IMG/VR virus record: IMGVR_UViG_2687453420_000004
Strand: one strand, 5' to 3'
Length of the DNA stretch: 64,000 nucleotides
Source of the DNA: an uncultured virus (IMG/VR IMGVR_UViG_2687453420_000004)
Lineage: Duplodnaviria; Heunggongvirae; Uroviricota; Caudoviricetes
Position numbers and translations under genes: made by a program. This document shows, piece by piece, positions 6,491 to 14,632 of the stretch. The first letter of the stretch is position 1. Every line of letters begins with the position of its first letter. The notes below the pieces were generated by a model, which was not told the DNA's origin, did no database searches, and was given only the letters and a program-made list of their open reading frames with translations.

Positions 6491-6652
6491 TGGATATAAT
6501 AAAAATGCCGAAAACTATACCAATCTATATATAAAAATCCACAAAAAAGAACCCTATTTATTGGGGTTCTTTTTTTGGGAGATATACGTTTAGCTTATCG
6601 CAAACTATTATATTTAATTAATATTCTACATATGTTAAAAAATTCCTTTAAA
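6491..6652. repeat. Convergent promoter-terminator-promoter unit U1 (candidate sRNA pair)
   Basis: TGGATATAAT (+), AAAAAGAACCC/GGGTTCTTTTT hairpin, AGGA-17-GAAT (-). Confidence 0.75.
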
Positions 6653-6946
6653 ATTAAAAAATGATAGCTATAGCATAAGCTATTATTTATCTATATGTAA
6701 CTATTTTAATAATAACTACCTACTGGAACATTTTTTACTAAATCAACTTTGAAATTTATGTGTTTCTGTACTAAATTTTTATACAACTATTATAATAAAT
6801 GAATATCAATAATACACATGTTATTTTTTAACACGAAAGTTTTTCTCCTTTATACTAGCATTATATACATTCTAAATTAATATATTTAGAATATAGGTCT
6901 TAAAACTAAAGTTACTTAAAATTTAACTATAAAAGGAGGAAAATTA

Positions 6947-8071
6947 ATGAATTTAAAATTTAAAAGTGTGTTTTCTATTTTTATTGCTATAATGATTGTA
7001 TTCTTATTAAATTCAATAGCATATGCAGAAGATACCAACGGAGTTTCTTCATATACTCCTATTAGAGGAAAAGTTTTAAAAGTTATAAAAGAATATGATG
7101 AAATTCAAGGTCAAGGCAAAGAATCTGAAAAACTTAAAGTGCAAAATTTACAAATTGAAATATTAGAAGGAAAATATAGAGGTAAGAAAGTATCTATAGA
7201 TAACCACATATCTACTTCCAAACAAAATGGTACATGCTATGCAAATAATGATGAAGTCCTTTTAATCGTGGAACCTGGAGAAAAGGGTGAAATATCATCT
7301 GTAAGTATTTATCAATTCACAAGGGACAAGTATTTAAAATATTTTTTAATAAGTTTTTGTATAATAATGGTTTTAATTGGAAGATGGAAAGGAATAAAAT
7401 CTTTATTAACCTTAGGTATTACTGTATTTTTTATTGTGAATGTATTCTTAAAATATATTTTAAAGGGATATAATCCATTCATGATTTCTATTTTTGTATG
7501 TATATGCATTACTACTGTCACTTTCGTAATAGTAAGTGGCATAAACAGAAAAACCATATCTGTTATATTAGGAACTACTGGTGGGGTCATGATCGCAGAA
7601 CTAATAGCTGTCTTTGTAGGTAATTTATGCAAAATAAATGCCATAAGTTCTGAAGAAGCCCAGGTACTTTTATATTCTAATCTAAATAATCCATTAAATT
7701 TTAAAAATATTTTTTTTGCTACAGTACTTATAGGTGCTTTAGGTGCTGTAATGGATGTAAGTATGTCCATATCTTCTTCTATGAGCGAAATAAGAGAAGC
7801 TAATGGAAATATAAGTACTGCAAAATTAATGAAATCAGGCATGAATATAGGAAGAGATATAATGGGCACAATGTCTAATACTTTAGTACTTGCCTATGCC
7901 AGTGGTGCAACTTTTCTTATTTTAAGTTGTATGGCCAATGGAGTTACTTTATTAGATATGATAAACCAAGATATGATAACATGCGAAATAATAAAAACCT
8001 TATCTGGTAGTATAGGCTTAATATTCACTATACCCTTTACTGTTATTATAAGTGGTATATTAGATAGATAA
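6947..8071 (+). CDS. YibE/F-family membrane protein
   Basis: IGALGAVMDVSMSISS, GMNIGRDIMGTMSNTLVLAY motifs. Confidence 0.9.
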   Translation: MNLKFKSVFSIFIAIMIVFLLNSIAYAEDTNGVSSYTPIRGKVLKVIKEYDEIQGQGKESEKLKVQNLQIEILEGKYRGKKVSIDNHISTSKQNGTCYANNDEVLLIVEPGEKGEISSVSIYQFTRDKYLKYFLISFCIIMVLIGRWKGIKSLLTLGITVFFIVNVFLKYILKGYNPFMISIFVCICITTVTFVIVSGINRKTISVILGTTGGVMIAELIAVFVGNLCKINAISSEEAQVLLYSNLNNPLNFKNIFFATVLIGALGAVMDVSMSISSSMSEIREANGNISTAKLMKSGMNIGRDIMGTMSNTLVLAYASGATFLILSCMANGVTLLDMINQDMITCEIIKTLSGSIGLIFTIPFTVIISGILDR

Positions 8072-8339
8072 AAATCAAAAACTTACTTGAATTACATATT
8101 AAATTGTGTGCATAATTTAATATGTATTGGTTAATCTTGTTATAAAAATATGTTATACATAAGGTAAAAGGGCTGCACCCATTTTTGAGCACAGCCTCTT
8201 ATTTTAAGTTTTATTTATCAAAATATGTAATATATTTTCATGAACTTAAGCAGAAATTTCTCCATTAATTTATTAATTGTAGTATCATTTCCTTTTTAAG
8301 CTTATACAAATTTAATTATCTATATAATTACTCCTAAAT

Positions 8340-8732
8340 TTAACAAGAAACCCCATCTACCTCATCATTATTTTTTTCAATAGTAATTATAAGTTTATGG
8401 GGAAGGCAAGCTGCTGTTTCCCCAGGTTTTCTCAATACTCCTGATTTTATACAAATCTTATTACGACAATTTGCTTCTATAAATCTAATAGATCCCTTAT
8501 CTACTTCTATAATATTATACCCTCTATAGCTACCTTCACTATAGTTAATTCTGAATTGTCTTTTTTCTTTTACTTTAGATAAATCAATTTTTTCTATAAT
8601 TTTACCATCCTGCTTTATTACAGCTACAGCCTTTTCAGATTTTGAAAAGAATTTAAAGAAAATTACACTTACTATACTTAAAACCAATAATGTAGTAACT
8701 ATATACATTACTATTTTATCACCTTTTTTCAT
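8340..8732 (-). CDS. NusG domain II / DUF1312-type membrane-anchored protein
   Basis: N-terminal TM; EANCRNKICIKSG...ACLPHKLII. Confidence 0.85.
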   Translation of the reverse strand: MKKGDKIVMYIVTTLLVLSIVSVIFFKFFSKSEKAVAVIKQDGKIIEKIDLSKVKEKRQFRINYSEGSYRGYNIIEVDKGSIRFIEANCRNKICIKSGVLRKPGETAACLPHKLIITIEKNNDEVDGVSC

Positions 8733-8756
8733 TAGCCCCCTCCTATTAAACTATAA

Positions 8757-8908
8757 ATATAATCAATATATTACATCAATCCATATAAAAAATCCATACA
8801 AAAAAGAACCCTATTTATTAGGGTTCTTTTCTTAAGCAAGGAGGTTGTCTAAATTATTGGTAAGCCGTTATATTTAATATTCTATAAATGTTAAAAAATT
8901 CCTTTAAA
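8757..8908. repeat. Unit U2 (left promoter degenerate)
   Basis: Same hairpin and sigH-like half as U1 and U6. Confidence 0.7.
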
Positions 8909-13234: not shown

Positions 13235-13247
13235 TTAATCTTTCCTC

Positions 13248-14081
13248 TTATATCTCATAATTTCTTATTAATACTTCTTCTACTTCTCCTCTTTTATTAG
13301 AATTGCTATTTATAGACCTATTCGCATTAACAACAACAATCTTATAATCGGAATAAAGATTTCTAATAAAACTTGTATTACTATTAGATAAAAGAAACTT
13401 TACTCCTTTTTTATCTAATTTATCACACAAATTTTTTAATCTTATTTGTTCTTTCCTATTAAAACCATTAGCAGTATATCCCGTAAAATTAGAACTATTA
13501 CTAATTGGGTCATATGGTGGATCAAAATAAACAAACGAATTTTTCCCTATTCGCTTTAATGATTCTGAATAATCACCACACTTAATTTCAATATTATTTT
13601 CATTTAGATACTTGTTTACTGCTCTTAAAACAGTCTCATTTAATATATTAGGATTTTTATATCTACCAAACGGTGTATTAAAATATCCTGATGAATTCAC
13701 TCTATAAAGTCCATTATAGCAAGTTTTATTTAAATATAAAAATCTACTAGCTTTTTTCACATTACTCCAATTTTTATATTCTTCTTCTCTATCAATAGCT
13801 CTAATTTCATAATAATAACCTTCTGTTATTTGATGCTTAGATAAGTCTACTAATAATTCTTCCAAATTATCTTTAATAACATTGTAAACATTAATTAATT
13901 CTTCATTCAAATCGTTAATAACAGCTTTTTTAGGTTGCATATGAAAAAGAACTGCTCCTCCACCAATAAATGGCTCATAATATTTATAGGTTCCTTTTGG
14001 TATATATTTTTTTATCTCATCAAGTAATTGTCTTTTTCCACCGACCCACTTTAATACTGGTTGGACTAGCATACTTCTCAC
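13248..14081 (-). CDS. Dam-family (D12 class) N6-adenine DNA methyltransferase
   Basis: LKWVGGKRQL, YYEPFIGGGAV, YFDPPY. Confidence 0.95.
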   Translation of the reverse strand: MRSMLVQPVLKWVGGKRQLLDEIKKYIPKGTYKYYEPFIGGGAVLFHMQPKKAVINDLNEELINVYNVIKDNLEELLVDLSKHQITEGYYYEIRAIDREEEYKNWSNVKKASRFLYLNKTCYNGLYRVNSSGYFNTPFGRYKNPNILNETVLRAVNKYLNENNIEIKCGDYSESLKRIGKNSFVYFDPPYDPISNSSNFTGYTANGFNRKEQIRLKNLCDKLDKKGVKFLLSNSNTSFIRNLYSDYKIVVVNANRSINSNSNKRGEVEEVLIRNYEI

Positions 14082-14148
14082 ATAATCACCTTCTCTGATT
14101 AAATATATTATTTAAAATAATATTATCCTTAAATTTATAACAAGTCAA

Positions 14149-14160
14149 GAACATTAGTTC
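14149..14160. promoter_or_regulatory. LexA/DinR-like box upstream of the MTase-REase operon
   Basis: GAACATTAGTTC (GAAC-N4-GTTC) abutting a TTGACT -35 on the minus strand. Confidence 0.55.
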
Positions 14161-14465
14161 AAATTATACACATATAATCCTGAATTATTATTTTAAATGA
14201 TATCTTTTACGTACTTAATTTCATTATTTTATAATCTTACTATCATTGCAATTAATTATTATAGCATAAAATCAATATTGTAAATAGTATAAAATATAAC
14301 AATTAATTATAAAAAAAATATTTATATACAATTACTTAAGGATTATTTTATAAATATAACAGAATAGAACTAAGCCAAAAACAACTTTAACACATTTTTG
14401 ATGTAAAATAAAAAGCTTTAAATATTAACTTTCTAAATTTTTTTAAGGATTAAAATTAATATACC

Positions 14466-14632
14466 TGGATATAATAAAAATGATCCAATACTACGCTAAC
14501 CTATATATAAATCCACAAAAAAAGAACCCTATTTATTGGGGTTCTTTTTGCTTAAGCAAGGAGGTCTATAATTAACCTATTGGGAAGCCATTATATTTAA
14601 TATTCTATAAATGTTAAATAATTCCTTTAAAT
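14466..14632. repeat. Unit U6
   Basis: Full copy of the convergent unit. Confidence 0.75.

Follow-up and report, generated by a model that had tools for sequence, protein, structure and literature searches.

What kind of element is repeated six times between positions 6491 and 14632 of the DNA recorded as IMGVR_UViG_2687453420_000004 in the virus database IMG/VR? The analysed stretch of 64 kb (the window, to whose whole length all coordinates refer) is a Clostridium prophage, and its six copies are named here c1 to c6 from left to right. Comparison with related loci suggests that the underlying unit is a multicopy and lineage-restricted pair of small RNA (sRNA) genes which converge on one bidirectional terminator, that its minus-strand arm is timed by SigH and that it represents a new family. 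We consider the chances of this reading to be about even.

The 15-mer TGGATATAATAAAAA occurs in exact form only on the plus strand, at 6491, 9763, 9950, 11809 and 14466, and these five occurrences compare with 0.00 expected from 100 dinucleotide shuffles; with up to two mismatches seven are observed and 2.9 expected. Searches with nhmmer profiles built from relatives detect six copies of the plus-strand arm (arm A) and four copies of the minus-strand arm (arm B), and elsewhere in the 64 kb there is no match with E ≤ 0.01 except short reverse-strand profile matches to the units' own shared terminator. An earlier note on this DNA had described six dispersed copies with one of them degenerate (at 8757), and this count stands, the degenerate copy being a 3′ half that begins at 8764. 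The same note had seen a hairpin together with AGGA-N17-GAAT on the opposite strand in four copies. Indeed, a GAACCC...GGGTTC hairpin with flanking A-run and T-run is found in c1, c2, c3 and c6, and the pattern AGGAWWW-N13-16-GAATW occurs nine times in the window (4.2 ± 2.1 expected), four of these sites belonging to the units and each showing AGGA-N17-GAAT. The endings CCTCCT, CTCCT or CTCCC reported for the minus-strand segments are likewise carried by the minus-strand bodies.

The anatomy of the unit can be read directly from an alignment of 39 full units from the window and related loci. Mean pairwise identity amounts to 0.64–0.86 within a block of ~190 nucleotides (nt) and to 0.30–0.50 outside, and the edges of this block are the −35 element of the arm A promoter (P_A) on the left and a position just beyond the −35 element of the SigH-type promoter of arm B (P_H) on the right. 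Arm A comprises GATTAA at −35, a spacer of 18–19 nt, TGGATATAAT, an unstructured G-poor body of ~38 nt and the terminator; its −10 element is a perfect TATAAT that is preceded by a conserved TGGA. Arm B comprises the promoter AAAGGAAT-N-TAGAAT, a body of ~42 nt with an unpaired CU-rich box and the same terminator. The latter is a central hairpin (GAACCC-loop-GGGTTC) that is preceded by an A-run and followed by a T-run and thus has the form of an intrinsic terminator that is readable in both directions. Its folds have energies of −12 to −24 kcal/mol and U-runs on either strand, the consensus terminator of the alignment fold has ten pairs, four of them with compensatory changes on both sides, and distant relatives keep promoter, hairpin and U-run with at least ten unrelated stem sequences. 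Neither single-sequence folds nor the alignment fold show any conserved structure besides the terminator.

With the RNA start assumed 6–7 nt past the −10 element the predicted transcripts are 66–79 nt (arm A) and 69–79 nt (arm B) long and overlap only in the hairpin of ~30 nt. Inside the units no conserved open reading frame (ORF), no conserved frame and no period-3 signal were found, and the mini-ORF that follows the GGAGG box has 4–10 codons, often lacks an ATG and is not conserved. On the predicted transcribed strand G and C account for 7.6% and 24.5% in arm A (37 bodies) and for 10.2% and 19.8% in arm B (34 bodies). The two arms are separable, being found together, alone or in tandem, and each of them keeps promoter and terminator. 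These features support a reading of each unit as two convergent, ORF-free promoter-to-terminator transcription units with predicted products of ~65–80 nt. In this respect the earlier note, which proposed RNAs of ~70–80 nt with a conserved frame and saw no consistent ORF, is supported.

The individual copies in the window are in different states of preservation. In c1 arm A (6465–6574, plus strand, nhmmer E = 6e-20) shows the promoter-like site TTGATT-N19-TGGATATAAT, a G-poor body of ~40 nt and the shared terminator, which is the only structure in its fold; arm B (6544–6650, minus strand, E = 9e-21, motif at 6622–6647) shows the SigH-type promoter-like site AAAGGAAT-N-GTAGAAT, a body that ends in UCUCCC and the shared terminator. 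Copy c2 retains of arm A only the 3′ half of the body and the terminator (8764–8830, plus strand, nhmmer model positions 51–113 only), its promoter being replaced by the 5′ region of a gene for a NusG_II-domain protein, together with a complete arm B (8801–8906, minus strand, E = 7e-25, motif at 8878–8903) that has a SigH-type promoter-like site, a body with ACCUCCUU and the terminator and lies ~70 nt upstream of the minus-strand gene 8340–8732. In c3 arm A (9735–9847, plus strand, E = 1e-26) has the site TTGATT-N18-TATAAT, which scores 10/12 in the promoter scan, and arm B (9817–9926, minus strand, E = 6e-22, motif at 9898–9923) stands back to back with the promoter of c4. The latter copy has no arm B; its arm A (9925–10022, plus strand; nhmmer match 9925–10007, E = 4e-11) combines an intact promoter and body with an alternative terminator, GGTATTCCC.../...GGGAGTACC, which is split by an insertion sequence (IS) and is found uninterrupted in the related locus L027. 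Copy c5 consists of promoter and body of arm A (11781–11872, plus strand, E = 6e-10, model positions 4–91); where arm B and the usual terminator would be expected, it runs into the 3′ end of a restriction-modification cassette, with a weak hairpin only. In c6, finally, arm A (14441–14549, plus strand, E = 9e-23) is followed by an arm B (14519–14629, minus strand, E = 2e-29, motif at 14601–14626) whose body carries GACCUCCUUGCUUAAGC and which lies directly downstream of a Cys-rich gene and an amidase gene. Both arms and the terminator are therefore intact in c1, c3 and c6, and terminator and arm B in c2. Since c2 is without P_A, the terminator of c4 is split and the hairpin of c5 is weak, the window holds nine promoter-like sites and only seven promoter-plus-terminator units instead of the up to ten RNAs that had been envisaged.

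The assignment of the arm B promoter relies on its sequence. AGG.A and GAAT are invariant in 25/25 aligned diverse copies, distant relatives included; a sigA-like −35 element that overlaps this promoter (TTAACA or TTTACA) varies across the same 25 copies. All four window copies of arm B show AGGA-N17-GAAT and so have the SigH form (A/G-AGGA-W and GAAT, 17–18 nt apart). SigH promoters of C. difficile have been tabulated, e.g., those of cwp27, spoIIAA and CD1264 (PMC7438776, Table 3), and in a comparison by eye the form of the arm B promoter and its spacing of 17 nt agree with this list. It is reasonable to speak of a SigH-type promoter, as the earlier note had done for the opposite-strand motif, and from this we infer that SigH would drive arm B. 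P_H-like matches in front of protein genes of two other species (L089 and L090; genes for a 70-amino-acid protein and an Fe-alcohol dehydrogenase, and for a protein of the ornithine cyclodeaminase family) were set aside as weak BLAST matches that are uninformative on SigH.

Between promoters and terminator the bodies of both arms are homologous throughout. Their pairwise identity of ~0.72–0.76 is slightly under that of the promoters and compares with ~0.35 in the flanks, and the RNA-A body is recognisably conserved in the more distant genome G008 despite an entirely different terminator stem. The variable segments of ~35 nt that had been described are thus present, but they are homologous and moderately diverged rather than hypervariable, and the idea of diversified seeds or guides is not supported by these figures. 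In arm B the conserved architecture starts with the SigH-type promoter and a short element rich in C and U close to the 5′ end; a second box of this kind follows, then an A-run and a hairpin of any sequence. The second box reads CCUCC, CCCUU, UCCUU and similar, often ACCUCCUU, and is located 10–20 nt before the A-run. A CU-rich pentamer occurs within the last 35 nt of the body in 44/57 distinct B-type units compared with 4.7 ± 1.9 after shuffling (maximum 11 in 200 shuffles), a count that overstates independence because the copies are related. This motif is complementary to GGAGG and unpaired in the folds; arm A contains only UCCA or CACC.

Relatives of the units are found only in the clade of Group I C. 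botulinum and C. sporogenes, as far as searched. The record closest to the window is a 99-kb IMG/VR provirus (G001) that has 94% of the sampled words in common with it, plasmid matches of the window are confined to phage-like plasmids of C. botulinum and C. sporogenes, and a phage collection that was searched with the region and with the unit gave no match. In IMG/VR 45 loci fit the pattern of arm A plus hairpin and 12 fit the pattern of hairpin plus arm B. Among genomes representing one per species 11 loci were detected, one of which is a chance match inside a gene; the ten real ones belong to C. botulinum ATCC 25763 (6), C. sporogenes (2) and Clostridium sp. FAM 1755 (2). The proviral and phage-plasmid loci bear out the view that Clostridium prophages carry the units. 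Within genomes B-type copies can be numerous, with at least nine in G004 and at least 15 in G008, where four B units follow each other in a tandem run at distances of ~170 nt. Rfam 15 gave no family at gathering score, neither for the window nor, as regards the units, for the loci of relatives; the best match was the sub-threshold MCS4 (39.1 bits vs 56). The unit, which the earlier note had not recognised as a named family, is thus not in Rfam. That note had also recommended an Rfam search and a covariance model across relatives: the former returned no family, and the latter (model R1 of arm B) matched 4/149 sampled genomes of the bacterial family, all four of which were already in the genus set of nine genomes. 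Nor was such a family found in the literature searched, a search outside which subscription-only papers and supplementary sRNA lists lie. A thiamine pyrophosphate (TPP) riboswitch that exceeds its gathering score with 63.7 bits lies close to a B-type unit of G008 (L079, 455–560, minus strand) and is unrelated to the units.

How such a gene pair might work can be outlined as follows. A housekeeping-type promoter would produce from arm A an RNA of ~65–75 nt that begins with ~38 nt of unstructured sequence, rich in A and C and poor in G. The SigH-type promoter of arm B, overlapped by weaker housekeeping-like hexamers, would yield an RNA of ~70–80 nt with an unpaired CU-rich box ~10–20 nt before the terminator, and this RNA-B is expected to accumulate at the transition to stationary phase or sporulation. 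It may pair with Shine-Dalgarno regions and lower translation in the manner of G-poor, CU-rich sRNAs of low-GC Gram-positive bacteria. Being conserved between phages, the units at the same time serve as homologous joints for the exchange and stacking of cargo cassettes, which explains why this prophage carries six copies. A more comprehensive scenario goes beyond this outline. It proposes a lineage-specific prophage system in which SigH-timed anti-Shine-Dalgarno RNAs of arm B and constitutive convergent partners from arm A reprogramme translation as the lysogen enters stationary phase or sporulation. The units would act as sockets through which cassettes for defence and other functions, CRISPR mini-arrays and restriction-modification systems among them, are exchanged and stacked by prophages of Group I C. 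botulinum and C. sporogenes. In this full extent it seems rather unlikely to us.

Pairing with translation starts was evaluated on 88 crude gene starts of the window (phage genes) relative to shuffles and internal sites. With the arm-B RNA B6 the mean duplex energy is −14.45 at starts, −11.69 ± 0.53 in shuffles (z about −5) and −10.48 at internal sites. B2 and B3 are ~1.5 standard deviations better than shuffles and B1 is no better, and the arm-A RNAs stay within ~1 standard deviation of shuffles except A4 (about −2). As to the check on enrichment at start codons that had been proposed, these 88 starts show better pairing of B6 and slightly better pairing of B2 and B3, and none of B1 or of arm A save A4. 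Specific targeting of ribosome-binding sites is not supported; apart from A4, only arm-B RNAs that bear CCUCC exceed the shuffles.

Several results weigh against a pair of trans-acting RNA genes. Arm A shows no better pairing with start regions than shuffled sequence, and that of arm B, none in the case of B1, is generic Shine-Dalgarno complementarity due to the CCUCC it carries and gives no evidence of specific targets. In a blastn-short search of the ten bodies against the window, no complementary match outside the family exceeded 15 nt (E ≥ 0.1). A 24-nt pattern complementary to the core of RNA-A (21 specified bases, up to three mismatches), searched in G004, G008 and G009, retrieved four units and one additional site with three mismatches on contig 16 of G008, and reversed-pattern controls gave three matches. 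The best mean rank as partner of RNA-A (2.4 of 95) was obtained by the start of the XRE gene at 6030–6230, a candidate that had to be rejected as a composition effect, because 42–310 of 500 dinucleotide shuffles pair with it equally well. Moreover, the −35 element of P_A is weak and variable, with a spacing of 18–19 nt and AGGATT in c6, and the TGGA is not a canonical extended −10 element. Among 12 units ascertained by way of arm B four are without P_A, the 3′ half of their arm A body being fused to unrelated upstream DNA. The single RNA run that was found (0.05 of words) covers only the IS (10022–11747) and is uninformative on the units; its contig, 1.7 kb long and ~95% identical, comes from an RNA library labelled "whole organism metagenome". 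Finally, all counts derive from homologous copies, and part of the conservation may be due to a recent spread by recombination and not to selection on an RNA.

In the strongest alternative the units could be boundary modules of prophage accessory cassettes, in which a bidirectional terminator insulates cargo from late transcription and is accompanied by outward signals; they would be kept mainly as recombination joints and any RNAs would be by-products without targets. We regard this as possible, at a probability well short of even. The units are indeed sites of recombination between prophages and bound exchangeable cargo cassettes. In the one comparison that reveals breakpoints at unit edges, that of the window with G001, positions 1361–8915 match one region of the provirus at 99.85% identity and positions 6485–17687 match another at 99.8%. 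From these two overlapping matches it follows that the common segment, containing the YibE/F and NusG_II-domain genes, begins within the promoter of c1 and ends at the P_H block of c2. The G001 counterpart of c1 has a different arm A body and the same right half, the switch being situated inside the hairpin. Breakpoints of homology exactly at unit edges, mosaic flanks, recombinant joints inside hairpin or leader and the flanking of every cargo block of the window by units are all what boundary modules would predict, and the failure to find specific targets in the window and the three related genomes fits them as well. An insulator, however, needs the hairpin only, yet both promoters and both bodies are conserved, and in G008 the stems are wholly changed while SigH-type promoter, CU-rich box and RNA-A body are kept. 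The G-poor skew furthermore follows the predicted transcript direction in both arms, and tandem arrays of B units alone have no cargo between them. For these reasons we prefer the convergent sRNA gene pair, to which a role as recombination joint can be added.

Recombination at the units accounts for the cargo that is stacked between the window copies, i.e., a membrane-protein pair, a Cys-rich gene, an IS, a restriction-modification pair and a second Cys-rich gene. The cassette between c1 and c2 (6947–8732) encodes, according to Pfam, a YibE/F-like membrane protein on the plus strand and a NusG_II-domain protein on the minus strand and is present in two G001 regions. In the loop of the c4 terminator resides an IS3-type element on the minus strand (~10023–11746; Pfam rve, HTH_21 and HTH_Tnp_1) with inverted repeats at 10029–10063 and 11706–11740 and the overlapping transposase ORFs 11010–11675 and 10103–11023. 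The cassette between c5 and c6 (11912–14081, minus strand) comprises a DUF6996/DUF6997/DUF7226 protein of 440 amino acids and a D12-class adenine methyltransferase (Pfam) and is probably restriction-modification cargo. As a whole, positions 1361–17687 of the window are a mosaic of two separate G001 regions that overlap at 6485–8915; either two prophages recombined across the common cassette or the 99-kb record of G001 holds two prophages.

The usual place of the units, which occur singly, paired or in tandem, is just downstream of a phage lysin. In 24/44 distinct IMG/VR units the first feature met within ~420 nt on the side of arm B is a lysin or Cys-rich gene, reached at its 3′ end. It encodes a Cys-rich small protein in 12 cases, an amidase in nine and a GH25 lysin in three, and it invariably runs in the direction of arm B. 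The same lysin-side position is found in two annotated phage-plasmids and in prophage regions of G004 and G008; one copy (L100) lies between ordinary chromosomal genes. In the window the end of the late/lysis module (14728–15939, minus strand) consists of an amidase gene (15166–15939, Pfam) and a gene for a small Cys-rich secreted protein (14728–14976) with a paralogue at 9308–9535, and the neighbours on the right-hand side of the region (amidase, XhlA and tail genes; Pfam) all lie on the minus strand. The paralogous Cys-rich proteins, both encoded on the minus strand, have 75 (9308–9535) and 82 (14728–14976) amino acids, a signal peptide and the pattern CxxC...CC...CxxC and are without a Pfam match; their homologues, positioned between lysin and unit, are the commonest right-hand neighbour of units (12/44 in IMG/VR).

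Some further genes in these neighbourhoods deserve mention. The XRE-type helix-turn-helix gene at 6030–6230 (minus strand, 66 amino acids) is divergent from the arm A promoter of c1; its homologues with 38–49% identity occur near units in L007 and L096 (both G001), L039, L076, L078 and L094, and a possible role is the regulation of the adjacent module. Two small hydrophobic ORFs on the plus strand, of 29 (6351–6440) and 26 amino acids (5236–5316), are located to the left of c1. The longer one has a KK end, a GGTGA ribosome-binding site and the look of a type I toxin; an antisense partner was not identified. On contig 13 of G008 (L098) a 212-amino-acid ORF at 1721–2359 (minus strand), close to the lysis genes of a prophage-like region, matches Pfam Bac_thur_toxin (PF01338, E = 3e-75), and a SocA/Panacea-domain gene stands between the lysin and tandem B units of the same locus.

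Since each arm B of the window points to a minus-strand gene (XRE at c1, the NusG_II-domain gene at c2, a Cys-rich gene at c3 and the methyltransferase operon at c6), it could be considered as a cis-acting 5′ leader or attenuator, that is, a conditional terminator for the next gene on the same strand whose Shine-Dalgarno sequence would be approached by the CU-rich box. Such a function seems unlikely. Folds and alignment fold show the terminator alone and no antiterminator pairing, and the bodies contain too little G for pairing with the left stem half. B units also occur in tandem arrays without intervening genes, in full units the terminator is followed by the opposing arm A and not by a gene, and the neighbouring genes vary in kind and orientation.

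CRISPR mini-arrays with a 30-nt repeat adjoin a unit in G004, L025 and L064, and in G004 and L064 the degenerate terminal repeat and its terminator abut the P_H block. One could thus regard the unit as a trailer- or leader-side module of prophage mini-arrays or as a source of a repeat-mimic RNA, which we hold to be very improbable. The repeat lies within 500 nt of 5/55 distinct units (four on the side of arm B, one on that of arm A) and always in one orientation, no oppositely oriented repeat being found near units at up to eight mismatches, and G004 combines many orphan arrays with a Cas6 gene among units. Yet the other 50 of the 55 units are without a repeat nearby, the window contains none within three mismatches and the best match inside a unit has at least 10/30 mismatches. 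There is also no match to an Rfam CRISPR-DR family and no Cas1 match in G004. We read the arrays as simply one more kind of cargo at this position and not as key to the unit. A chromosomal stretch of 60 kb in G004 (L091–L093; contig 1, 2.912–2.972 Mb) contains six units, at least nine short arrays or single copies of the 30-nt repeat, all in one orientation, and also a Cas6 gene, phosphotransferase system (PTS) genes and the remnant of a lysin. In this it is similar to the variable sites in which, according to excerpts of PMC8865420, orphan arrays occur with degraded cas6.

A type I toxin-antitoxin locus, where an antisense RNA would converge on the mRNA of a small toxin, is suggested by the convergent promoters with a common terminator, by precedents for a position in prophages (excerpts of PMC5961336 and PMC6563280) and by the 29-amino-acid hydrophobic, Lys-ended ORF just upstream of c1, and nevertheless it has hardly any probability: there is no conserved ORF or period-3 signal, the mini-ORFs are not conserved, the predicted RNA overlap is limited to the terminator, and the 29-amino-acid ORF accompanies only three of the loci compared (the window, L006 of G001 with a near-identical form, and L039 with 74% identity). 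Little credit can be given as well to a selfish dispersed repeat resembling miniature inverted-repeat transposable elements (MITEs) with promoter- and terminator-like sequences by chance, for although the units are multicopy (at least 9–15 per genome), lineage-restricted and intergenic, with L100 in an ordinary chromosomal intergenic region, they have no terminal inverted repeats, no target-site duplication was noticed in the flanks read (no dedicated search was made), their arms are independent and occur in tandem, and the lysin-side position is strongly non-random. An origin of the unit as inverted duplication or terminal-inverted-repeat element was rejected too, the arms not being significantly alike (271 of 1000 shuffles score as well). 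Thus for riboswitch or attenuator, repeat mimic, type I toxin-antitoxin locus and MITE alike a defining feature is missing.

If the RNAs are real, the convergent gene pairs would constitute an undescribed multicopy sRNA family with at least 9–15 copies per genome, clade-confined as far as searched, and they would link these prophages to the transition-phase programme of SigH. Regardless of any action in trans the units mark a hot spot of accessory genes after the lysis genes as well as the joints at which cargo is swapped, including restriction-modification systems, CRISPR mini-arrays and membrane proteins, and as landmarks they aid annotation and comparison of these prophages.

In their presumed mode of action the nearest analogues are the streptococcal csRNAs and LhrC of Listeria; the units belong to neither family, being homologous to none of them and without an Rfam match. 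Both analogues comprise sibling sRNA genes recognisable by a common regulator-specific promoter and a terminator, and their G-poor RNAs expose unpaired CU-rich anti-Shine-Dalgarno motifs. The csRNAs are encoded by sibling intergenic genes with a conserved regulator-specific promoter and a terminator, are 51–202 nt long and present an unpaired stretch complementary to the Shine-Dalgarno sequence; one copy has been reported as IS-truncated (excerpts of PMC3091779). Similarly, arm B combines a conserved SigH-type promoter, an unpaired CU-rich box and a terminator in 9–15 or more copies, and one unit is hit by an IS. In contrast with csRNAs, to which they have no sequence relation, the units possess a promoter of sigma-factor type instead of a response-regulator site and one hairpin rather than two, an anti-start-codon element is inconsistent, and they are mainly prophage-borne and paired with a convergent second putative RNA gene. 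LhrC of Listeria monocytogenes represents multicopy G-poor sRNAs whose CU-rich (UCCC) motifs bind a G-rich region upstream of start codons (excerpts of PMC4132741). Arm B resembles them in its G-poor (10%) and CU-rich bodies and its tandem clusters; without being homologous, it differs in having one or two motifs in an unstructured 5′ region behind a SigH-type promoter, whereas LhrC has three redundant loop motifs and depends on LisRK.

Prophages of C. difficile harbour type I toxin-antitoxin modules beside CRISPR arrays (excerpts of PMC5961336 and PMC6563280). As far as these excerpts reach, the units share with such modules the convergent small transcription units in accessory regions of clostridial prophages, sometimes beside CRISPR arrays; unlike them they are without a toxin ORF, and the predicted RNAs overlap in the terminator only. 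Phage morons, finally, are cargo genes bracketed by their own promoter and terminator signals. The units agree with morons and mosaic boundary sequences in bracketing cargo near the lysis genes and in forming conserved joints at points of module exchange. In contrast with morons, the bracket itself is here a conserved module of ~190 nt that is predicted to be expressed and recurs without cargo and in tandem.

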